42,066 nucleotides of DNA from Oscillospiraceae bacterium (GCA_031549735.1 JAVBPF010000031.1:1-42066); one strand, 5' to 3'. Counted from the stretch's first letter, positions 15,211-40,653 are shown. Notes: generated from the sequence alone by a model not told the origin. Numbers and translations are program-made.

Positions 15211-15230
15211 AGCGAGCGGTTACATCGTTT

Positions 15231-15280
15231 TTTCTTCCCTGGTGGAGACGGAGGACGTGACTTTTTGCACGCCAAGAAAT
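15231..15280. repeat. Partial copy of the dispersed intergenic repeat (copy A)
   Basis: tccctgg..gacggaggacgtgactttttgcacgccaagaaa aligns to 40500-40543 (tccctga..gatggaggacgtgactttcttcacgccaagaaa). Confidence 0.7.
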
Positions 15281-15426
15281 CAAGCCTCGCGCGGTTTTGT
15301 TTCCATAGGACTCGCTGTTATTTTTTGCGCATACCGAATATTTTAACAATAAGCATCTCGCACAGAGCACAATGAAAAAACAAATATTGCGGCGGCGCGG
15401 CCGCTTTGGGATAGGAGGATTCTTTC

Positions 15427-21537: not shown

Positions 21538-23208
21538 ATGTTTTTGTTGAATAAGTTTTTGCCTCGGATTGATTTCGATTCCTATAAGGATTTCAAGGCC
21601 AATTACCGGGTCGACATTCCGGAACACTTCAATTTCGGATTCGACGTGGTCGACACCTGGGCGGAGCATGAACCGGACAAGCGCGCGCTTGTCTGGTGCG
21701 ACGACCATGGCGGAGAGCGCACCTTCACCTTTTCTGAAATCAAAGCACTGTCCAACCGCGCCGTTCACTTTTTCAAAGCGCAGGGCGTGGGCCGTGGCGA
21801 CGTGGTGATGATGATCCTGCGCCGCCGTTGGGAATATTGGATCGCGGCTGTAGCGCTGTGCAAGCTGGGCGCGGTGGTCATTCCGGCCTCGCTTCAGCTG
21901 ACGGCCAAGGACATTGTCTATCGGATTCAAGCGGCCAAAATCAAAATGCTGGTCTGTGTCGACGACGCTTTTGTCATCTCGCAGGTCGAGGAGGCACTGA
22001 CACAAATCGAATCAAAGCCCGTCAAAGCGCTGGTTGGCGCGCCGCGTGACGGATGGCTGGATTTCAATCAGGGTTTGGAGGACAAGCCCGAGACCTTTGC
22101 GCGTCCCACCGGGGATGACGCCACCCGCAACGACGACCTGATGCTGATCTACTTCACCTCGGGCACGACCGGTATGCCCAAGATGGTGTCTCACCCGCAC
22201 ATCCACCCGCTTGGCCATATTGTCACCGCGCACTACTGGCAGCGTGTAAAGGAAAACGGCTTGCATATGTCGGTGTCCGATTCGGGCTGGGCCAAGTTCG
22301 GCTGGGGGAAAATATACGGACAGTGGATTTGCGGCGCGGCCATTTTTGCGTACGATATGGACAAGTTTGTCCCGAAAAATCTGTTGTCCATGATCGAAAA
22401 ATATCGATTGACCAGTTTTTGCGCGCCGCCCACCATGTACCGATTCATGTTGCAGGAGGATGTGGCTCGTTACGATCTGTCATCGGTCGAGCACTTCGGT
22501 CTGGCCGGCGAGCCGCTCAATCCCGAGGTGTTCCGTAAGTGGTATGAGCTGACCGGACACAAAATGACCGAGGGCTTTGGACAATCCGAATCCACCGTGC
22601 TGGTGGCCAATTACCAGTGGTTCGAGCCCAAGCCAGGCTCGATGGGGAAAGCGTCTCCCCTTTACGACATCGATCTGATCGACGCCAACGGCCAGCCCTG
22701 CGCCGAGGGTGAGGAAGGCGAGCTCATCGTCCGCGACGTGAAAAAGCACCCGCCGGTCGGCTTGTTCACCGGTTATTACCTCGACGACGAATTGACTGAA
22801 AAGGCCATGGGGCAGGGGTACTACAACACCGGCGACGTGGCTTGGCGCGATGCCGACGGTTACTTCTGGTTTGTCGGGCGCAACGACGACGTCATCAAAT
22901 GCTCAGGCTACCGCATCGGCCCGTTTGAAGTCGAGTCGGCGCTGCTGGAGCATCCGGCCGTCACCGAGTGCGCCGTCACCGCCGCGCCCGATCCGGTGCG
23001 CGGGCATGTGGTCAAGGCCAGTATCATCTTGGCGCCCGGGCACGTCCCGTCCCCCGAGCTGGCGAAAGAATTACAGGAGCATGTCAAGCGGGTGACCGCG
23101 CCTTACAAATACCCGCGCATCGTGGAATTTGTCGCCGAATTGCCCAAGACGGTCAGCGGTAAAATCAAGCGTGCGCAGATACGCCGGGAGGACGAGGGTC
23201 AAAACTGA
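21538..23208 (+). CDS. AMP-forming acyl-CoA synthetase (ANL family)
   Basis: YFTSGTTGMPK P-loop, EGFGQSE, YNTGD, GRNDDVIK, LPKTVSGKIKR. Confidence 0.92.
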   Translation: MFLLNKFLPRIDFDSYKDFKANYRVDIPEHFNFGFDVVDTWAEHEPDKRALVWCDDHGGERTFTFSEIKALSNRAVHFFKAQGVGRGDVVMMILRRRWEYWIAAVALCKLGAVVIPASLQLTAKDIVYRIQAAKIKMLVCVDDAFVISQVEEALTQIESKPVKALVGAPRDGWLDFNQGLEDKPETFARPTGDDATRNDDLMLIYFTSGTTGMPKMVSHPHIHPLGHIVTAHYWQRVKENGLHMSVSDSGWAKFGWGKIYGQWICGAAIFAYDMDKFVPKNLLSMIEKYRLTSFCAPPTMYRFMLQEDVARYDLSSVEHFGLAGEPLNPEVFRKWYELTGHKMTEGFGQSESTVLVANYQWFEPKPGSMGKASPLYDIDLIDANGQPCAEGEEGELIVRDVKKHPPVGLFTGYYLDDELTEKAMGQGYYNTGDVAWRDADGYFWFVGRNDDVIKCSGYRIGPFEVESALLEHPAVTECAVTAAPDPVRGHVVKASIILAPGHVPSPELAKELQEHVKRVTAPYKYPRIVEFVAELPKTVSGKIKRAQIRREDEGQN

Positions 23209-23225
23209 ACAGAATGGACTCAATT

Positions 23226-23258
23226 AAGAGGCGGCCAACCGGCCGCCTCTTTTTTTTC
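23226..23258. terminator. Intrinsic terminator after the acyl-CoA synthetase gene
   Basis: aagaggcggcc-aacc-ggccgcctctt followed by a T run. Lies between convergent genes. Confidence 0.85.
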
Positions 23259-23272
23259 TTCTGCTGCTGCTT

Positions 23273-23998
23273 TTATCGGTTCTCGTTCCACATGCGCCAT
23301 AAAAAATCTTCAGGGTGGGTACGGTACCAGTAGGGTACGGCAAACCGATCGTAGAGCGGCAATGCCAGCCGCCAGCTCAGATGGGCCCGCGCGCGGGGGG
23401 TAAACTGCGCCCGCCGCCCGAAATAATCGCGCAGCAAGACCTTTTCCGGTTCGGACAGCGGATAGCGTGGGTAACGGGGCACTTGCGCCGCGGGCGCCAA
23501 ACTGGCGCGTAGCGCGTTCAGGCTCACTTTGTCCCGTCTCGGCTCGTGGATGACCAGGGTGTCCATCACGATATCACCCACCCGGCGATCCCGCCCGTCG
23601 ACGAACATGGTCACAACACCCACGCCGTACAGTGCCGGCAGAAAATCCAACAACCGGAACAGGTTTCGACCCAGAGCGCCCACCCAGTCAAGCGGTCTGC
23701 CGTCGGCGTGAATGACGCGCAGGCGCACAATCATTTTGCCCGGCGTCCGACCCTTGCAAAATCCTTCGAATAGGATAAAATAGAAGAAGAAAAGAAGGGC
23801 CGCCGAAAGAATGATGAATGCGGTGTAAAATGAGGCGAAGCCGCCCGCCGACGCCCCGGCCAGCAGCAAAAGCACAAAGGCGATGCCCTGGAAGATCATG
23901 TCCAGCGCCACGGCCAGAAAGCGCGAACCGATGCCGGCGCGCTGATAGGACAGATAGACTTGCTCGGTGGTGTCGACGCGATAGCGGGAAACGTCCAA
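23273..23998 (-). CDS. RDD family membrane protein
   Basis: AGIGSRFLAVALD, GRTPGK...LRVI, RNLFRLLD and RRVGD motifs. TTG start with GAGGTG RBS. Confidence 0.88.
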   Translation of the reverse strand: MDVSRYRVDTTEQVYLSYQRAGIGSRFLAVALDMIFQGIAFVLLLLAGASAGGFASFYTAFIILSAALLFFFYFILFEGFCKGRTPGKMIVRLRVIHADGRPLDWVGALGRNLFRLLDFLPALYGVGVVTMFVDGRDRRVGDIVMDTLVIHEPRRDKVSLNALRASLAPAAQVPRYPRYPLSEPEKVLLRDYFGRRAQFTPRARAHLSWRLALPLYDRFAVPYWYRTHPEDFLWRMWNENR

Positions 23999-24090
23999 AA
24001 AATCACCTCATCAACAGGAGCATTTTGATGGATTCAGCGTTAACCGGGAATCATTCTGAGCAACTCAGATTTCACCAAGGAGTGGATGTC

Positions 24091-25038
24091 TTGACAGAAG
24101 AGGCCTTTGTTCGCGGGCACGCCGCCGCCTGGCACGCTCTGGAGGAGAACCTGAAACAGGGCGTCCCGCATGATTTCGAAGCCATGACCCGGCGGTCGGC
24201 GCTGCGCCGGGGTGTAACCCGGCACCTCTCATACGCGCAGACGCATTTCCCCGATTCGGAGGTCTGCCGGTATCTCAACACATTGGCCGGCAAGGCGCAT
24301 GTGGATGCCGAGCGCAAGCGGCGCGCCCGCCGCAATCCCGCACGCTTTTTCCTCCGCGACATCCCGAAAACCGTATTGGCCGGCAAGGCCTTTTGGCTCA
24401 CCGCCATCGGACTGTTCGGTCTGGCTTTTTTGTACGCCTATCTGTTTGTACATTTCAGCCCGTCCTCGGCGGGCGCGTTTTTGCCGCCGGAATACCTGTC
24501 GGCCGGTGTGAACCCGGGCGGCGGTTCGGCCTACTGGGACGGAACGGTGATGTCGTCGGGCATCATGGTCAACAACATCATGGTGTCGATCATGGCCTTC
24601 GCCTACGGCATCACGCTGGGCCTGGGCACGCTGTATGTGCTGGTGCAGAATGGTCTTATGCTGGGCGGGCTGGCCGCGCTGGTCACCGACGCGGGTCACG
24701 GGACACTGTTCTGGTCGCTTATTCTGCCGCACGGCGTGTTTGAGTTGTTCTCCATTTTCCTGTCGGCCGGCGCCGGGCTGTCCATCGGCTATGCGTTCAT
24801 GCGTCCCGCGCCCTATACACGCGGCGACGCGCTGAAGAAAAATGCCCGCGCCGCCATGAAGCAATTGGTGTTGGTCTGTGTTCTGCTCGTCGTGGCCGGG
24901 CTCATCGAGGGGTTCTTTACGCCCAGCGATCTGCCGGTTTGGAGCAAGTTCGTATTTTCCGGCGTGTGCGCGTTGATTCTTATCGCCTACCTGCTGGGCA
25001 GTCGGGGAGAAAAGCGTTCGCCCGCGGCTTCACCATAA
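24091..25038 (+). CDS. Stage II sporulation protein M (DUF95)-like membrane protein
   Basis: N-terminal W..LE...HLSYAQT...YLN, then IMVNN, QNG, ILPHGVFEL and AGLIEGFFTP. TTG at 24091 follows AAGGAG; alternative ATG at 24028. Confidence 0.85.
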   Translation: MTEEAFVRGHAAAWHALEENLKQGVPHDFEAMTRRSALRRGVTRHLSYAQTHFPDSEVCRYLNTLAGKAHVDAERKRRARRNPARFFLRDIPKTVLAGKAFWLTAIGLFGLAFLYAYLFVHFSPSSAGAFLPPEYLSAGVNPGGGSAYWDGTVMSSGIMVNNIMVSIMAFAYGITLGLGTLYVLVQNGLMLGGLAALVTDAGHGTLFWSLILPHGVFELFSIFLSAGAGLSIGYAFMRPAPYTRGDALKKNARAAMKQLVLVCVLLVVAGLIEGFFTPSDLPVWSKFVFSGVCALILIAYLLGSRGEKRSPAASP

Positions 25039-25081
25039 GGGCGGGCACTCTCGACGCAATGAGGGCTCGGTCGCTGTAAAA

Positions 25082-26383
25082 TCAAATCTTCCGCTTCAAT
25101 AACATATACTTCCGAACCAGCTCGGGCAAAACCCGATGCGGGTCGGACGCCACGACGTCGCCCTGTCTGTTGAAGATGTGGGCGGCGTCTGTTTGCGCTG
25201 TTTCCCGATAGGCGCCCGCGCCCTTCAGCGCCAGGTCGGACAAGTTCTCCGTGTCACTTCGCAGAATCTCATCCACCGACGGGTCGAACAGCGACACCAC
25301 GGTCAGCGCGTGATGCGACGCCAGCACCGAAAGCTCTCCGGCGGCAGCCCGTGCCGCTTCATCATCCTCAAAGAAGGAAAAGAGAAACACAAGCCCGCGC
25401 TTGCGAAACCGTCTGAGCACCTCGCCCGACAGCTGCGCGTAGCCGCTGGCGCGGCGGGTCGGCGCGGCGTTGTACATGGCGGCCAAAAGCTTGTTCATCT
25501 GCGCCTGTCCTTTGTCAGGCGGCACATAGAGCTGCACCTCGCTGTCGAACAACACAAGACCCACGCGGTCGCCCGAGATGAGGGAGACCTGCATCAGCGC
25601 GGCGGCGTTTTCCAGCGTCCGATCCAGGCGTGTCACCACGCCCATCGGCGCGCCCATCCAGCGCCCAGTGTCGATGGCCACCAAGACCTCCCGGTTTTTT
25701 TCGACCTGATAGGTGTTGGTCATCGGCTTTTCCATGCGGGCAGTGGCCATCCAGTTGACCCGCCGGGTGTCGTCGCCCGAGACGTACTCGCGAATGTTCT
25801 CAAATTCCGAACCGCCGCCCCTGAGGCGCTGTAACGCCGCGTCCTCACGGGAGAGCAGGTTTCGTTTGGTGAGCATCTGATATTTACGCATGGCCGTAAG
25901 GTCGGGATAGACCGGCGTCGTACCGGGGCAGGGCAGCACAAAACGCTTGACGCACAGCCCCCATCGGCCGGTCAGCGCGACATGACAGCCGCCAAAGGCA
26001 AAAGAGCCCCGTTCGGCCGGACAGACCGTGTACGCGATGCGGTGTGTCTCCCCGGGCGCCAGCGTCAGCGTCTGCGCCTCGTGCCGCGCGGCGAACAGGG
26101 GGGGCGGCGCGTCGCAGACAACCAGGTTCAGGCTTACACCGGCGGTGTTGGTCAGCGTCAGCTCGACCGAGGACGGCCTCCGCTGCTCCAGAAAAGCGTC
26201 GACCCGGCGTGAAACCATGAGCGCCTTTTTTCCGGGCGACCGACGCCAGTCGAGGACAAACAGCAGGCACACGATCAGCGCGTATCCCAACAGAACCGGC
26301 CACAAGACCCCCGGAAGCGCGCCGAGGGGCGCAACAAGCAGCGTGCCGAACAGCAGGAAGACGGTGCGTTTGGTCAGGCCCAA
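25082..26383 (-). CDS. DUF58/vWA-domain protein, membrane-anchored MoxR partner
   Basis: Two N-terminal TMs, an Ig-like region (RGSFAFG), EFENIREYVSGDD.RRVNWMATAR, vWA start VAIDTGRWM and GDRVGLVLF. TTG start with AAGGAGGTG RBS. Confidence 0.88.
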   Translation of the reverse strand: MGLTKRTVFLLFGTLLVAPLGALPGVLWPVLLGYALIVCLLFVLDWRRSPGKKALMVSRRVDAFLEQRRPSSVELTLTNTAGVSLNLVVCDAPPPLFAARHEAQTLTLAPGETHRIAYTVCPAERGSFAFGGCHVALTGRWGLCVKRFVLPCPGTTPVYPDLTAMRKYQMLTKRNLLSREDAALQRLRGGGSEFENIREYVSGDDTRRVNWMATARMEKPMTNTYQVEKNREVLVAIDTGRWMGAPMGVVTRLDRTLENAAALMQVSLISGDRVGLVLFDSEVQLYVPPDKGQAQMNKLLAAMYNAAPTRRASGYAQLSGEVLRRFRKRGLVFLFSFFEDDEAARAAAGELSVLASHHALTVVSLFDPSVDEILRSDTENLSDLALKGAGAYRETAQTDAAHIFNRQGDVVASDPHRVLPELVRKYMLLKRKI

Positions 26384-26566
26384 GGGCTCACCTCCTTGCG
26401 GTATGGATCGATCTCTGTAAAGTACTTTGTTTAGACAACCATGTTGACTCAAAGAAATTGGTGTGAGAAAAAACATCTCGAGTCTTGCGAAAACTTAACC
26501 GCACGAGGCATCCTATTCAGGGCGTAGGGCTGAAACCGGGATTATGCTACCCGAAACCCTTTGATC

Positions 26567-26873
26567 TCATCGGTTCGGTGACTGTGTGATAACCGGCAAA
26601 GCCCGGATGACAGCGTTTGTGCAGGATTGTTTGAGCGGAAAGCAAGCCTCGCGTCTCCAAAACGTCTCTTTGGTGACTTTCATCGAAGAGCCTCGTCGAC
26701 GCGCAGGGGAAATATGGAATCTCCGCCCCCGGAAAACAGGGCTGGTCGTCTCACGCAAGACCAGGCGGCATTTTCGGAAGGCATTAGACTTATTTCTCCG
26801 GCCGCGCGGTGCGCTCGAGACTTGACACCATCGCGTGAAGAAAGTCACGTCCTTCGTTCCCCGGCAGGGACAA
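26567..26873. repeat. Dispersed intergenic repeat copy B, full length but interrupted by an insertion
   Basis: 26567-26685 and 26834-26873 align colinearly with the reverse complement of 40497-40653. Confidence 0.9.
26681..26833. mobile_element. 143-bp non-coding rod-like palindromic insertion flanked by a CATCG direct repeat (MITE-like)
   Basis: Absent from the homologous 40.5-kb copy. CATCG at 26681-26685 and 26829-26833. Imperfect inverted symmetry about ~26753. Confidence 0.6.
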
Positions 26874-26923
26874 AAACACGTCGATATACAGGACAAGTTC
26901 TGCTCGCCGACTCGCTCAAGTTT

Positions 26924-27870
<947 letters not shown>

Positions 27871-27874
<4 letters not shown>

Positions 27875-28740
27875 GATTCATTCCTCCCATGGTCGGATGT
27901 GCGCCACAGCGCGTCAATACGCCGCGACAGCGAGAGCAAAACAGCTCGGTCTTCTTTGGTCAGAGCGGAAGGTGACGCGGATGACGCGGCAAAGCGGAGA
28001 AGCCCGGTCTCCACCTGCGCATCGCGCCGCCGGGTGCGTTCGCGTACCGCCTCGTAATACAACGTGACGGCACGGACATAGTCGCCGGAATCCTCCATGA
28101 AATCGGCCAGCTGCCGGACATCCTCCACCTCGCGTCGGACGCCGTCGGCTTCCTCCAGCGCTTTGGGCGGGCCGACCGGCCGTCGCCAGAACAACAGGAG
28201 CAGCAACAGGACAATGAGCAGCGACCATCCGGCCGCCGCCACCCAGTCTGGCAGCAGAGACAGCGGCGTAAGTTCCTGTGCGGGCGCCGCCGCCGGACGG
28301 TATTCGTCAAACCAGATTGTGGCGTCGCGACTGGGCCAAAGCTGCTCAAAAAGGTCATAGAGCCGGTCGTTGTATTCAATGCTTTGATTGATATAGTCAA
28401 AGGCCGGCGTGAGGTGCAGATACCGTCCGCCCGCCTCCTCAAAGGCGTCGATGTCCGGGATCGCGGATTCGTACACGTCGGGGTCGACGCAGAGCACGAC
28501 GCCCCCTTCGATTTCGGACAGCGGCACCTCCTTGCGGGCCACATGGAATCCTGATTCCTCCAGCAGCAGATACAGTGCGCGCGTCCCGGTCGATGAGGTG
28601 GTGAGCGAATCGTAGGGCCGCCCGGTCGCCTTGGGCTGCAAACCCAGAAGGAGCAAACCGATCAGCGCGACCAAAAACAACAGAAGGAGGACGAGGTTCA
28701 GCCCCCGTCCGGAACGGGACCCGCCGGAAGTCTTGCTCAT
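27871..28740 (-). CDS. DUF4350-like membrane-anchored protein
   Basis: N-terminal TM, S...TGTRALYLLLEE.G, IWFDEY, second TM then RRPVGP. ATGA overlaps on both sides and expected position in the MoxR module. Confidence 0.7.
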
Positions 28741-29426
28741 GCCGACGCCGCCTCCCTTCCGCCGAAGAGCCGTCCGCGCCAGAGCCGGTAATCCTCCGGC
28801 AGCGCGGGCGTATCTCCGTAGCGCCGCTCGTTGAAGGCGAGGCAGAAGGCGGAGAATACGGCCGCCGCCCGGGTGTCCGCACGAACAATATCCGTATAGT
28901 ATTGGCGATTGGTGCGTCCCGGCGTCAGCGTCAGCACTCCGGTCTCGGACAGCGCCTTGAGATGCGCGTATAACAGGAACGAGAAAGCGTCGCACACCGC
29001 ATCGCTCTCATACAACCGGTCGGCATGGCGCAAAAGCTCCTGCGAGGAGTCGTCTTTCAGGGTGGGCGCGGGCGCGGACGGCGCGGCCTGGCGCGGCGGC
29101 GCCCGGCGTCTGACCAGACGGACAATAAGATAGACAAGCGCCGCGACCAGCACGGCCGCCAGCACAATCAGCAGGACGTCGGCCCGTCCGTTTTCATCGA
29201 TGAAGAGGGACAAGAGATCGTTCAGTCTTTCCCCAAGCCACTGGAGCGCGCGTTCCCAAAAGCTCGGCTGCGGCGGCGCGAACTCCGGCCGTCCCAAAAT
29301 ATCGCGCAGGCGCTCCCGGATATCCGCCTGCCCGGGCAGATCCCCGGTGCCCGTCCAAAGGGCGCCCCAACCAAACGCACCCGAACCAAGGACGCGTTTG
29401 AGATTCAGTTGTCTGCTCCGCCTCAT
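28737..29426 (-). CDS. DUF4129-like membrane protein
   Basis: ILGRPEF, a TM helix, then A..LLY..L..L...PGRTNRQY...F...YG in the C-terminal domain. Confidence 0.75.
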   Translation of the reverse strand: MRRSRQLNLKRVLGSGAFGWGALWTGTGDLPGQADIRERLRDILGRPEFAPPQPSFWERALQWLGERLNDLLSLFIDENGRADVLLIVLAAVLVAALVYLIVRLVRRRAPPRQAAPSAPAPTLKDDSSQELLRHADRLYESDAVCDAFSFLLYAHLKALSETGVLTLTPGRTNRQYYTDIVRADTRAAAVFSAFCLAFNERRYGDTPALPEDYRLWRGRLFGGREAASA

Positions 29427-30370
29427 CGCCGCGCGCGGGCCAATGCGCCCGCCCGAAGCTCCAGATCGTAGCCCTCGCGCCGCATACGGCCGTCCAGATA
29501 GAGCAGAACCGCGAGAATCGGCAGCAGCGGTAGCGTAATGGAGGAGAGGAAAGTGGTGACCAACGTGGTCAGCCAGACCGGCAATGTGACCAGCGTCAGG
29601 AGATAGCTCGATAGCAGACTCCAGGCCAAATCAAGGAACAAGATCATGACAAAGCCGAAGGAGAACGTGAAGGTGTTCTTCCAAAAAGAGCGGAAATAGA
29701 GCGAAAAAGCGCGTCCCACCGCACCGAAACCGTAACGGCCCTCATGGAAAAACACCGCGTAGACCAGCGTCGTCCAAAAATAGGCAATCCCATACAGAAG
29801 CAACACCGCCAGCACCATCAGGACGGTCATCACAATGATGAGGGCGGGTACACCGCTCATGGCGAACATCGCGAAGATAAAGATGACAACCAGCATGGGA
29901 AACAGTACGGCCAATATACTAGCCACCAGAACGAGGAGCTGCGCCAGACCGGTGACAAAAAGCTTGCCATACAGACGAAGCGTGCCGGTAAACCATTCGG
30001 ACGGTTTGCGGCGCGCTCCATGAATATACCCGCCGGCAATGTTGGTTATGCCGCCGGTGATGATCGGGATGATGAACAGGAATGTCAAAAATTGAATCAG
30101 AAGACCCCAGTTGAAGGCGGGAGAAAAGCTCGGGACGGCCATATCGCTGTTTAGGTACGACTCGAAGTAAGAGGTATAGGAATTCAACAATGAATCCACA
30201 AGCGTACCGCCCGACCAGAGATAGATCCCCAGCTCGGTCAGAAAACTCACAACGCCGGAAATCCCCAGTGCGAAAATACAGATGGACACAAAATTGCGCC
30301 GGTAAATCCGGAACGAATTGTCCAACACGGTGCCCATCCCCATCGGCGCCAGCGGAAAAGGTGTGTTCAT
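29423..30370 (-). CDS. Polytopic membrane protein of the MoxR module (GDPD-membrane-domain-like)
   Basis: LAPMGMGTVLDNSFRIYRRNF N-terminus, about 6-7 TMs, C-terminal LLYLDGRMRREGYDL. Confidence 0.78.
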   Translation of the reverse strand: MNTPFPLAPMGMGTVLDNSFRIYRRNFVSICIFALGISGVVSFLTELGIYLWSGGTLVDSLLNSYTSYFESYLNSDMAVPSFSPAFNWGLLIQFLTFLFIIPIITGGITNIAGGYIHGARRKPSEWFTGTLRLYGKLFVTGLAQLLVLVASILAVLFPMLVVIFIFAMFAMSGVPALIIVMTVLMVLAVLLLYGIAYFWTTLVYAVFFHEGRYGFGAVGRAFSLYFRSFWKNTFTFSFGFVMILFLDLAWSLLSSYLLTLVTLPVWLTTLVTTFLSSITLPLLPILAVLLYLDGRMRREGYDLELRAGALARARR

Positions 30371-30415
30371 AATTCACCCCGTCGAAAGCACGCCCTGCCC
30401 GGCGCGCATCATTAT

Positions 30416-31615
30416 CTATCGAAGCAGCCCCACGCAATCATAATGCGGTTTCTGCGCCAGCTTGTCCCGCTGTTCACGAAAAACGGTGTGTGCCAGCGCG
30501 ATGACCAAATAGTCGCAGCGGAGCGCCTCGGGCAGCGTCAGATTGGCAAACCCTTCGATGTCGGCGTCGGACACGTGCGGTTCACAGGCTGACACACGCA
30601 CGCCCCGGTCACGCAGGTCATGGCACAGGGTGAGGGACGGCGACTCGCGCAGATCGTCGATGTCCGGCTTGTAGGCCAGTCCCATCACACAGACGTGCGC
30701 GCCGGCCGGAAGCTCGCGTACCACCGCTTCGGCTACAACATGCGGCTTGTTGTCGTTGATGCGCCGCGCCGTACCGATAAGCGGGGTTTCGGCGGGGAAA
30801 CGCTCGTGAATGAACCAGGGGTCGATGGCGATGCAGTGCCCGCCCACGCCCACGCCGGGGGTGTGGACGTTGACGCGGGGATGGCAATTGGCCAGATCAA
30901 TCAGTGAAAACACGTCGATGCCCAGCTTGGCGCACACACCCGACAGCTCGTTGGCAAAGGCGATGTTGATGTCGCGGAAGGTGTTTTCCACCAGCTTGCA
31001 CATCTCGGCGGTCACGTCGTCGGTCACCTTGAGCTGGCCGCCGGTGGCCACGCGCCGGTAAATGTCGCAGGCCAACCGTGTGGCTTCGGCCGTCATACCG
31101 CCAATGATGCGGTCGTTGTTTTGCAGCTCATAGAGGATCCGACCGGGGATGACCCGCTCGGGACAGTGCGCCACATGGAAGCGCTCGGCTGCCAATCCGG
31201 AATGCTGAGCCAGCTCGTCGCGCAGCATCCGGCAGGTTGTGGGCGGCACGGTGGATTCCAGCACGACCAGATTGCCCTCGGCCAGCACTTGGGCGATCTG
31301 CCGTGCGGCGGCCGCCACAAAGGTCAGATCTGCCTTGGGCGTTCCGCCCGCGCCGTCGACCTTGGGGGTCTGCACCGTAATGATAAACGCGTCGGCGGGC
31401 ACAAGCGTCGTTCCGAACGTCAGCCGCCCGGTATTGCGCGCCGAGGCGAACAGTTCGTCCAGACCGGGCTCAACGATGGGCAGGCGTCCCTCGGACAATG
31501 TCTGCACCACGTCGGGCTTGATGTCGACGCCATGCACCTGAAACCCCGCCTCGGCCAAAGTGATGGCGGTGGGCAGACCGATGTAGCCCAGCCCCAGAAC
31601 ACAGATTTTTTCCAT
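30416..31615 (-). CDS. wecC: Nucleotide-sugar dehydrogenase (UDP-N-acetyl-D-mannosamine dehydrogenase-like)
   Basis: GLGYIGLP, LESTVPP, HCPERVIPG, KLVENTFRD, catalytic GVGGHCI, GLAYKPDIDDLRESP. Confidence 0.82.
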   Translation of the reverse strand: MEKICVLGLGYIGLPTAITLAEAGFQVHGVDIKPDVVQTLSEGRLPIVEPGLDELFASARNTGRLTFGTTLVPADAFIITVQTPKVDGAGGTPKADLTFVAAAARQIAQVLAEGNLVVLESTVPPTTCRMLRDELAQHSGLAAERFHVAHCPERVIPGRILYELQNNDRIIGGMTAEATRLACDIYRRVATGGQLKVTDDVTAEMCKLVENTFRDINIAFANELSGVCAKLGIDVFSLIDLANCHPRVNVHTPGVGVGGHCIAIDPWFIHERFPAETPLIGTARRINDNKPHVVAEAVVRELPAGAHVCVMGLAYKPDIDDLRESPSLTLCHDLRDRGVRVSACEPHVSDADIEGFANLTLPEALRCDYLVIALAHTVFREQRDKLAQKPHYDCVGLLR

Positions 31616-31666
31616 ACTGTTCTCTCTCCCCAATGTTGCAGAAGCCGCGAAGCGGCTTCCAAATCT

Positions 31667-32845
31667 TTATGCCTTGGCGTAGGCGCGCAGTGTGTCGGCC
31701 AAATCGGTTTTCTCCCATGGCAGGTCAAGGTCGGGCCGGCCGAAGTGCCCGTAGGAGGCCGTGGGTGTATAGATGGGACGGCGCAAGTCGAGCGTCTCGA
31801 TGATTTTGGCCGGGCGGAAGTCGAAATGCCGCGCGACGATGGCGGAAAGCTTCTCGTCGGACAGGCGTCCGGTTCCGGCGGTCTCTACCAGAATGGAGAC
31901 CGGCTGCGCCACGCCGATGGCGTAGGAAAGCTCAATCTCACAGCGGCGCGCCAGTCCGGCCGCCACGATGTTCTTGGCGGCATACCGCGCCATGTAGGCG
32001 GCGCTGCGGTCAACCTTGGTGGGATCCTTACCCGAGAAACAGCCGCCGCCGTGCCGGGCAAAGCCGCCGTAGGTATCGACAATGATTTTACGGCCGGTGA
32101 GCCCCGAGTCGCCCGCCGGGCCGCCCACCACAAACCGTCCGGTGGGATTGATATAGATTTTGGTGTCGCCGTCGAGGTAACGGGCGGGGATGACCGGGGC
32201 GATGACCGCCTCGCGCACGGCGGCGCGCAGCGTGTCGATGTCGATGTCCTCGTGCTGGGTGGACACAACGACCGCCTCGACGCGGGCGATATCGCCGTTG
32301 TCGTCGTACTGAACGGTCACCTGACTTTTACCGTCGGGGCGCAAAAAGGGAAGCTCGCCGATCTTGCGGCACTCGGCCAGCCGGCGGGTCAGCGCGTGTG
32401 CCAGCGAGAGCGAGGCCGGCATATACTCGGCCGTCTCATCACAGGCAAACCCAAACATCATGCCCTGGTCGCCCGCGCCGATCCGATCGGCGTCGGCATG
32501 CGCCCGCTTGAATTCCATCGAGTGATCGACGCCCAGCGCGATGTCGGCGCTCTGTTCGTCGATCGAGGTCAGCACGGCGCAGGTTTTGTAGTCGAAGCCC
32601 AGATCGGGGTTGTCGTAGCCGGCGCTGCGGATGACGCCGCGCACCACGGACGGGATGTCAACATAGCACTGGGTCGTGATCTCACCCATCACAAAGGCCA
32701 TGCCGGTGGTGACGATGGATTCACAGGCCACGCGGCCGAACGGATCCTGCCGCAGGATGGCGTCCAGAACGCCGTCGGAGATCTGGTCGCAGATTTTATC
32801 GGGATGGCCTTCGGTGACCGATTCCGAGGTAAACAGTCGAGCCAC
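31667..32845 (-). CDS. metK: S-adenosylmethionine synthetase
   Basis: [49 protein letters not shown] at 32845 follows AAGGAGG; alternative ATG at 32851. Confidence 0.97.
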
Positions 32846-40433: not shown

Positions 40434-40496
40434 AATGTTTTGGGGGTTATGATAGGATTTTTTTCGCGCGGCTATACATCATACTGATGTAATTTC

Positions 40497-40653
40497 TTGT
40501 CCCTGAGGGGGATGGAGGACGTGACTTTCTTCACGCCAAGAAAGTCACCAAAGAGGCATTTGGGGACGCGGGGGCTGCTTTCCTCTCAGGCAGTCCCGCG
40601 CAAACGCTGTCATCCGGGCTTTGCCGGTTATCACACAGTCTCCGAACCGATGA
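40497..40653. repeat. Dispersed intergenic repeat copy C, uninterrupted, ~157 bp
   Basis: Inverted homologue of 26567-26873. Contains hairpins gtgactttctt-cacgcc-aagaaagtcac and cgcgggggctgc...gcagtcccgcg. Confidence 0.9.

Follow-up and report, generated by a model that had tools for sequence, protein, structure and literature searches.

A widespread seven-gene MoxR membrane module in an Oscillospiraceae genome: distribution, family signatures and a candidate inner-membrane machine

A module of seven genes, encoding a MoxR-type AAA+ ATPase and six membrane proteins, was analyzed at positions 23273-30370 of a 42,066-nucleotide stretch of DNA from an Oscillospiraceae bacterium (GCA_031549735.1, JAVBPF010000031.1:1-42066; this whole stretch is referred to as the window). 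The window adds one more copy of a module that is known and widespread but still uncharacterised. Its seven genes probably, if with no great confidence, encode one conserved inner-membrane machine in which MoxR and its DUF58 partner service their own membrane partners. New here are the family placement of the first gene, a D-x-G-R signature in DUF58, natural fusions of the RDD and SpoIIM-like proteins, the lack of a conserved eighth gene, repeats inserted in the operon and a shortened DUF4350 ectodomain.

Gene content and organization

All seven genes within 23273-30370 were found to be real by an open reading frame (ORF) scan and a Pfam search of the translations (Table 1), and the starts of the DUF4350-like, DUF58 and SpoIIM-like genes were re-set from ribosome-binding sites and the N-termini of homologues. 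Genes on the minus strand are transcribed in the order polytopic membrane protein, DUF4129, DUF4350-like, MoxR, a gap and DUF58; the SpoIIM-like gene stands alone on the plus strand, divergent from the RDD gene. The first four genes are coupled by three ATGA overlaps (29423-29426, 28737-28740 and 27871-27874). Five of the seven products scored above their Pfam cut-offs, the DUF4350-like protein fell below its cut-off, and the first gene was placed only by transitive homology; the domain E-values and the recurrence of the entire set in other genomes exclude chance. Membrane orientation was assigned throughout by a simple hydropathy scan and the positive-inside rule, and at least one membrane segment was found in six of the seven products and none in MoxR. 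An earlier, sequence-only reading of this DNA had described a complete seven-gene set with these domains, the first four genes joined by ATGA overlaps and six products membrane-bound, and on all of these points it was upheld, the domain calls with the two exceptions just given. It had also placed DUF58 behind MoxR, where the order proved right but the junction is not tight: approximately 540 bp, mostly repeats, separate the moxR stop from the likely DUF58 start.

Conservation and distribution

A wide survey was anchored on an alignment of the SpoIIM-like protein and comprised 80 named loci, four loci from relatives and the window (85 rows). The window's gene order and strand pattern, with all seven families, was seen in 33 of the 85 rows (Bacillota, 20; Poribacteria, 4; Acidobacteriota, 3; Eremiobacterota, 3; Armatimonadota, Chloroflexota and a Lutibacter-labelled record, 1 each). 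Three further rows held all seven in other arrangements (two from Actinomycetota and one from Leptospiraceae, the latter with an RDD-SpoIIM fusion), and in 22 a contig edge lay too near to judge. In a separate, even sample of 81 genomes from Actinomycetota, the phylum of locus L075, the SpoIIM-like protein was found at a threshold of E <= 1e-10 in 21 genomes (19 of 79 when the unpublished genomes G042 and G059 are left out). The window's pattern was seen in nine of the 18 Actinomycetota loci fetched, most of the others being cut by a contig end or carrying an insertion. With both samples combined, at least seven phyla were found to share this gene order and strand pattern. Cultured carriers in the survey include Clostridium amylolyticum DSM 21864 (L033) and Brassicibacter mesophilus DSM 24659 (L040). 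The sequence-only reading had expected the genes to co-occur in other genomes and to keep their order beyond one phylum, and both expectations agree with the two samples.

Among 24 other genomes of the window's family, an orthologous DUF58 gene was found in five (G001, G002, G010, G016 and G023), which, contigs permitting, carry the entire set in the same order; none was found in 16 genomes of the same order. Such patchiness suggests that the module was lost repeatedly or was passed between close relatives. In a tree built from concatenated MoxR, DUF58 and SpoIIM sequences of 51 loci (FastTree, midpoint root), rows grouped largely by phylum, and the window fell with G001, then with G002 and G010, within a Bacillota clade. 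The carriers in the same family are named Oscillospiraceae bacterium by NCBI, and the host was accordingly a Firmicute, as had been proposed. Recent transfer into the lineage from another phylum, for which a phylogeny had been suggested as the check, is unsupported, the window being nested in the Bacillota clade. As a separate observation, the module of a record titled Lutibacter sp. B2 (L037) also lies within the Bacillota clade, beside Brassicibacter, which suggests that the assembly carries a wrong label or contamination, or that the module was transferred.

The module has no conserved eighth gene beside it: no flanking family occurred in more than six of 46 loci. Nor was any synteny of flanking genes found with G001, G002, G010 or G023, where the genes that flank the window copy do not accompany the module. 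Two local associations were seen. Six Acidobacteriota loci without an adjacent RDD gene (L054, L062, L063, L091, L093 and L099; Pyrinomonadaceae, Pyrinomonadales and Blastocatellia records) have a bactofilin gene upstream of the SpoIIM-like gene, called from PF04519 in one scanned representative, L091, and four clostridial loci (L035, L041, L042 and L070) have a DUF975 gene on the RDD side.

Some loci hold only part of the set. In cyanobacteria (L085, L102, L090 and L098) and in one Poribacteria locus (L100) a GPDPase_memb-like gene adjoins the SpoIIM gene, with or without RDD, and the MoxR genes are missing, so that the module resembles a membrane trio joined to a MoxR quartet. In L030 (Clostridium caldaquaticum) and in L112 and L127 (both Actinomycetota) the SpoIIM-like gene is separated from DUF58 by 3-7 kb of other DNA, which shows that the module can split at this junction. 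These loci favor two independent units that travel together, a MoxR-DUF58-DUF4350-DUF4129 quartet and an RDD/SpoIIM-like/GPDPase_memb-like trio, as do the trio or pair without MoxR genes in some Poribacteria, Chloroflexota and Actinomycetota rows and the occurrence of MoxR-DUF58 with a DUF4129-type partner in another context, the MoxR-DUF58-transglutaminase set on contig C44 of this genome. Two separate units are nevertheless considered unlikely: one fixed order and strand pattern would be hard to maintain over at least seven phyla without a common function, and the GPDPase_memb-like gene is ATGA-coupled at the far end of the MoxR operon, away from the RDD/SpoIIM pair.

The likeness to the Mycobacterium tuberculosis moxR2 locus (Rv3689-Rv3695), which the sequence-only reading had pointed out, is matched by published annotation. 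Genes of M. chelonae and their M. tuberculosis counterparts are annotated as membrane protein (Rv3689), DUF4350 (Rv3691), MoxR (Rv3692, moxR2), DUF58 (Rv3693), SpoIIM (Rv3694c) and RDD (Rv3695), with only Rv3694c on the other strand, and the orthologous M. chelonae genes shift together in one transcriptome contrast (PMC8191103). By annotation, the mycobacterial locus (MAB_0386c-0392c in the M. chelonae / M. abscessus counterpart) is thus like the window in its families and its lone opposite-strand SpoIIM gene; Rv3690 is not among the table rows used here (PMC8191103). The mycobacterial locus differs in having no repeat insertion, and the DUF4350 proteins of Actinomycetota are longer than that of the window. 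The sequence-only reading had held that no function is established for this locus, and the literature searches gave none.

The MoxR-DUF58 pair

MoxR matched AAA_3 (E 2e-62, 209 bits) and AAA_lid_2 (E 2.7e-18, 65.9 bits), and its translation shows intact Walker A (GVPGLGKT) and Walker B (LLLADE) motifs. Metagenome contig depth over the conserved AAA core of moxR (27292-27499) was several hundred; this depth must come from MoxR genes of other organisms and is therefore uninformative for this genome. The DUF58 start is most likely the TTG at 26383, behind AGGAGG (433 residues; open frame 25082-26476); the reading frame of the gene is intact and its ribosome-binding site strong. Hydropathy gave an N-terminal membrane hairpin, and the vWA-like domain is predicted to be cytoplasmic.

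At the metal ion-dependent adhesion site (MIDAS) of DUF58, D-T-G-R-W stands in place of D-x-S-x-S. This degenerate site had been pointed out in the sequence-only reading, and it proved to extend to the module as a whole. Among the DUF58 sequences surveyed, D-x-G-R-x-[MLT] stands unchanged in 57 of 62 rows, the other five being three D-to-E or G-to-A variants and two fragments without the region, and D-x-G-R is kept in 14 of 15 Actinomycetota DUF58 rows. The only Actinomycetota row with D-H-S-R (L124) also has its SpoIIM/RDD pair inverted relative to the other rows. For DUF58 paralogues in this genome and related ones, tblastn returned 12 rows; the 10 that aligned over the site comprise two with D-x-S-x-S, eight degenerate in other ways and none with D-x-G-R. 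As judged from these alignments, the degenerate MIDAS is a conserved D-x-G-R signature of the module DUF58 and no local oddity. Since the MIDAS serines are replaced by a conserved Gly-Arg, DUF58 probably binds its partner in a metal-independent manner. A PDB profile search with DUF58 gave no matches at E 0.1, and a scan of the genome contigs with the DUF58 protein found no close relatives.

Several known systems pair a MoxR-class ATPase gene with a neighboring vWA gene whose product is thought to bind the client (RavA-ViaA, NorQ-NorD, CbbQ-CbbO and BchI-BchD). In MoxR-vWA pairs with known clients the vWA protein has a metal-binding MIDAS and the gene for the client enzyme lies close by, whereas in the module D-x-G-R replaces the MIDAS and no enzyme client is conserved nearby. 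In the Bat (Bacteroides aerotolerance) operon, too, DUF58 and several membrane proteins follow MoxR; the operon differs from the module, in which Pfam called neither BatA/BatB-type vWA membrane proteins nor the tetratricopeptide repeat (TPR) proteins BatC/E. The locus on contig C44 (L111 3855-8762; MoxR, DUF58 and an 895-residue Transglut_core protein) represents the MoxR-DUF58-transglutaminase operons of the YeaC-YeaD-YebA / TgpA type. These operons share MoxR, DUF58 and a DUF4129-bearing membrane protein with the module; in the module, by contrast, none of the seven products contains Transglut_core, DUF4129 stands by itself on a bitopic protein and there are four extra membrane proteins.

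Two other assignments were tried and rejected. A defence or conflict system was set aside on a bpMoxR score of 25.5 bits (cut-off 27), the lack of a propeller gene and a weak, generic AAA match by PADLOC in one of the seven products. The DUF58 and MoxR operon of the M. smegmatis SigF regulon was not counted as this module, the RDD gene being elsewhere in that genome (PMC4694148).

The SpoIIM-like and RDD proteins

The SpoIIM-like start is most likely the TTG at 24091 (315 residues; open frame 23818-25038), homologues beginning MTEE.F, and this start sets the divergent spacer to the RDD gene at 92 bp. The protein consists of a three-helix N-terminal domain, predicted to be cytoplasmic, followed by six membrane helices; homologues carry PF01944 and PF28475. 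Residues N161, N162, H214, G215, E218, R244 and E273-G274-F275 are invariant in the alignment. In an AlphaFold2 model (predicted local distance difference test, pLDDT, 90.3) the Asn, His and Glu residues would lie in the outer half of the membrane. The RDD protein has two long membrane helices and a C-terminal helical domain predicted to be cytoplasmic; the conserved Arg and two Asp of the family are present, with R26, D33 and D142 invariant in the alignment.

RDD and SpoIIM-like sequences often form one protein. Natural RDD-SpoIIM fusions were found in L097 and L073, and a HMMER search with the 606-residue L097 fusion gave 15,510 matches at E <= 0.001, with 91 of the best 150 being 530-700 residues long. 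AlphaFold2 modeling of this fusion, from an alignment of 71 such proteins, gave a pLDDT of 90.5 and a predicted template modelling score (pTM) of 0.87, and the model is compatible with a single compact unit with the RDD C-terminal domain on the cytoplasmic side. Complex prediction for the SpoIIM-like, RDD and first-gene products spoke neither for nor against binding, as a control with chain 1 replaced scored within 0.10 of the complex (required margin 0.20). Foldseek searches of the PDB with the SpoIIM-like and fusion models gave nothing at E <= 0.001. A wide fold search (VIA) with the SpoIIM-like model reached Z-scores up to 8.9, these matches covering the N-terminal three-helix bundle only and being generic.

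The pair raises the possibility of a regulated ion or solute transporter, in which the RDD/SpoIIM-like/GPDPase_memb-like core would carry a cation or small molecule across, with MoxR-DUF58 serving only in its assembly or switching. A Na+(Li+,K+)/H+ antiporter function has been reported for an RDD-family protein of Halobacillus andaensis (PMC5996927), and invariant charged or polar residues lie in the membrane helices here (RDD R26, D33 and E78; SpoIIM-like N161, N162, H214, E218 and E273). A transporter nonetheless appears improbable. Fold searches gave no transporter fold, with TM-scores of approximately 0.1-0.2, the window RDD has an extra cytoplasmic domain and a fixed partner, and the two bitopic proteins and the need for an AAA+ chaperone would be left unexplained.

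The window protein shares the PF01944 domain with Bacillus subtilis SpoIIM of the SpoIID-SpoIIM-SpoIIP engulfment complex, from which it differs in its added N-terminal three-helix domain and its pairing with RDD. No SpoIIP was found in a search of the 79%-complete genome. A second SpoIIM-family gene, a 210-residue ORF on contig C72 (38816-39346; 51.7 bits), may be the sporulation-type copy. SpoIIM has been described as a membrane scaffold for wall hydrolases, and bacterial SpoIIM homologues as neighbors of a vWA protein and a COG0714 ATPase (PMC5898192), an arrangement like that of the window, where the SpoIIM-like gene lies beside the vWA and ATPase genes. In M. tuberculosis, both Rv3694c (10 spectra) and Rv3695 (9 spectra) were listed among the proteins pulled down with Rv0954, a division-associated protein (PMC8093794).

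The first gene, DUF4129 and DUF4350-like proteins

By sequence comparison the first-gene product is probably a divergent GPDPase_memb/DUF7847/DUF975-like protein. It gave no Pfam match even at E 10 and no NCBIfam match, and a word-based homologue search returned only two proteins. A jackhmmer search over the fetched loci linked it to its positional counterparts in 51 loci, and of 27 aligned family members 15 matched PF10110 (GPDPase_memb), five PF25231 (DUF7847), three DUF975 and two UPF0259. A protein-atlas feature search led to the same membrane families with a score of 0.95. Alignment of the family showed a conserved N-terminal LD..F..YR and a conserved C-terminal Y.D.R.R.EG.D.E, with both ends predicted to be cytoplasmic. 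PDB profile searches with this family and with RDD gave chance-level rows only.

A single membrane segment was found in the DUF4129 protein (residues 84-102, hydropathy scan), and its C-terminal DUF4129 domain is probably cytoplasmic, judging from hydropathy and the charge that follows the segment. At the start of this domain is a TPR-like helix pair, seen from matches between the family profile (positions 109-134) and designed TPR proteins. The DUF4350-like gene starts at the ATG at 28740 (289 residues), which corrects the earlier description. Its predicted layout is a membrane segment, an acidic ectodomain of approximately 130 residues, a second membrane segment and a cytoplasmic tail of approximately 100 residues. 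The protein was connected to full-length family members by jackhmmer, and the DUF4350 proteins of the window, G001, G002 and G010 were seen in the alignment to be without approximately 100-170 ectodomain residues that are present in other phyla. The sub-threshold PF14258 score of the window protein is in keeping with this loss of ectodomain sequence. Weak matches of the DUF4350 family profile were to the GH42 middle domain, IFT52 and 2gk3 (E 0.003-0.013).

DUF4350 is also the link to a proposal made for archaea, where DUF4350-MoxR-vWA sets were predicted by Makarova et al. 2015 to be a secretion or membrane-remodelling complex (PMC5898192). The archaeal arCOG01314 (DUF4350)-MoxR-vWA neighborhood shares the DUF4350, MoxR and vWA trio with the module, and unlike the window module the archaeal sets include Ig-like and surface layer (S-layer) proteins and a secreted vWA protein (PMC5898192). 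Sections 3.2 and 3.3 of that paper do not contain the seven-gene set with RDD, DUF4129 and a GPDPase_memb-like protein (PMC5898192). Extended to bacteria, the proposal would make the module a novel apparatus for secretion or surface-protein export, and the stated relationship of DUF4350 to GldG of the gliding/type IX system, on which a secretion system was proposed (PMC5898192), fits the weak profile matches to GldG-like folds noted above. The proposal is regarded as quite unlikely for the bacterial module, since no secreted or S-layer cargo gene is conserved beside it, the DUF58 vWA domain is predicted to be cytoplasmic and that of the archaeal model is secreted, and the DUF4350 ectodomain is cut down in the window lineage.

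A proposed inner-membrane machine

Where the client of a MoxR system is known, its gene is usually a neighbor of the MoxR genes. Because no other gene is conserved near the module, the clients of MoxR are most likely the module's own membrane partners, in line with the favored view of the seven genes as one machine, which is held to be probable by a modest measure. In such a machine the motor would be the cytoplasmic MoxR AAA+ ATPase, held at the membrane by DUF58, a partner of the type usual for MoxR, with its vWA-like domain in the cytoplasm. The bitopic DUF4350 protein, with a GldG/IFT52-like ectodomain and a cytoplasmic tail, and the DUF4129 protein, with a cytoplasmic TPR-like domain, would act as adaptors or sensors connecting both faces of the membrane. 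The core would consist of the RDD and SpoIIM-like pair and the GPDPase_memb-like polytopic protein, and ATP hydrolysis would drive assembly, remodelling or gating of this core. The membrane orientations, the physical complex, the direction of action and the output of this machine are all inferred. An ATP-driven envelope complex for assembly, insertion or transport, as put forward in the sequence-only reading, likewise stays a conjecture. Envelope remodelling at division sites is a guess at the output, toward which the scaffold role of SpoIIM in engulfment and the M. tuberculosis pull-down lean.

A more specific version is put forward as a long shot. In it the Arg of D-x-G-R would replace the MIDAS metal and let the DUF58 vWA domain grip a conserved acidic segment on the cytoplasmic side of a module partner; by pulling on this partner, MoxR would bring about the opening, assembly or resetting of the RDD/SpoIIM-like core at the division site. 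Candidate segments would be the Y.D.R.R.EG.D.E tail of the first-gene product and, in DUF4350, the acidic residues that follow the second membrane helix, and the invariant Asn/His/Glu cluster of the SpoIIM-like protein would face the outer leaflet.

Several points weigh against a single machine. In 9 of the 85 survey rows only the adjacent RDD gene is missing, and in 18 rows with flanks available the SpoIIM-like gene has some or no partners. Within the family and order of the window the module is evidently dispensable, given its DUF58 gene in only five of 24 and none of 16 genomes. In this genome approximately 410 bp of repeats break the coupling of moxR and DUF58, and the DUF4350 ectodomain is shortened in this lineage. 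The fold searches yielded no functional analogue, and the link to division comes from a single pull-down list of many membrane proteins. The literature searches found no functional study of the module, and no experiment on any member.

Repeat insertion between moxR and DUF58

The moxR-DUF58 junction that is widened in the window measures 4 bp in G002 and approximately 67 bp in G001. It contains two nested repeat elements. The outer element (26479-26681 and 26833-26891, approximately 260 bp) is in two pieces that are contiguous in its other copies, and the inner element (26682-26828, 147 bp) folds as a long imperfect hairpin. A blastn search of the genome itself gave 55, 70 and 30 matches for the three repeat pieces, on 24 to 37 of the 116 contigs, with copies in both orientations and approximately 83-86% identical. 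Together the two families amount to dozens of copies and approximately 14 kb of the 1.7-Mb genome. Further copies were seen in the window at 40494-40653 and 15226-15293. The repeats look like miniature mobile elements; an Rfam scan of 22000-32000 gave nothing near threshold and left the repeats without a match. A weak sigma-70-like site lies within the repeat. Insertion of this kind is known from this genome alone.

The window was found in one DNA run, an invertebrate gut metagenome, which may be its source; no RNA run containing it was listed. Contigs from this run tile over the insertion, with depth approximately tenfold higher in the repeat bins; as the run is possibly the source of the assembly, this is not independent support. 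Two metatranscriptome runs of the same study gave short pieces only, in the AAA core and the repeat, and are uninformative on expression.

Genomic context

The window is contig C22 of a 1.72-Mb assembly (116 contigs, 79% complete). The hairpin at the RDD end of the module separates the RDD gene from a convergent gene for an AMP-binding enzyme, and on the far flank lie a UDP-sugar dehydrogenase family gene, metK and an AdoHcy hydrolase gene.

Table 1. Features of the seven-gene module in the window, numbered from the window's first nucleotide
Feature	Coordinates	Strand	Evidence
Polytopic membrane protein, 315 aa, first gene	29423..30370	-	No Pfam/NCBIfam match; jackhmmer transitive homology
DUF4129 protein, 229 aa	28737..29426	-	PF13559, 29.2 bits (cut-off 24.8)
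DUF4350-like protein, 289 aa	27871..28740	-	PF14258, 24.0 bits, below cut-off 30.4
MoxR-type AAA+ ATPase, 316 aa, sole soluble product	26924..27874	-	AAA_3, 209 bits, and AAA_lid_2
Two nested multi-copy repeat elements between moxR and DUF58	26479..26891	.	blastn against own genome
DUF58/vWA-like protein, 433 aa	25082..26383	-	PF01882, 98.8 bits (cut-off 23.4), and VWA_2, 32.2 bits
SpoIIM-like protein, 315 aa	24091..25038	+	PF01944, 130.7 bits
Divergent spacer between RDD and SpoIIM-like genes, 92 bp	23999..24090	.	Start codons and ribosome-binding sites
RDD protein, 241 aa	23273..23998	-	PF06271, 71.4 bits
GC-rich hairpin with T-runs on both sides, likely module end	23226..23251	+	Terminator scan: 11 pairs, 8 G-C

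Significance

The copy in the window, from an uncultured Oscillospiraceae bacterium of an invertebrate gut, is no more testable than many other copies, and its value is comparative. The points of use are the D-x-G-R signature, the frequent RDD-SpoIIM fusion and the lack of an outside client gene; in addition, the window lineage tolerates a shortened DUF4350 ectodomain, and the window genome a repeat insertion within the operon. The module, a chaperone-type ATPase coupled to six membrane proteins, is among the more widespread bacterial gene sets without a tested function. If the long-shot proposal of a D-x-G-R grip were true, it would represent a new class of metal-independent, ATP-driven membrane-remodelling machine in Clostridia, Actinomycetota with the mycobacteria among them, and many other phyla. 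Solving the module would explain a class of MoxR systems and a role of SpoIIM-like proteins outside sporulation.

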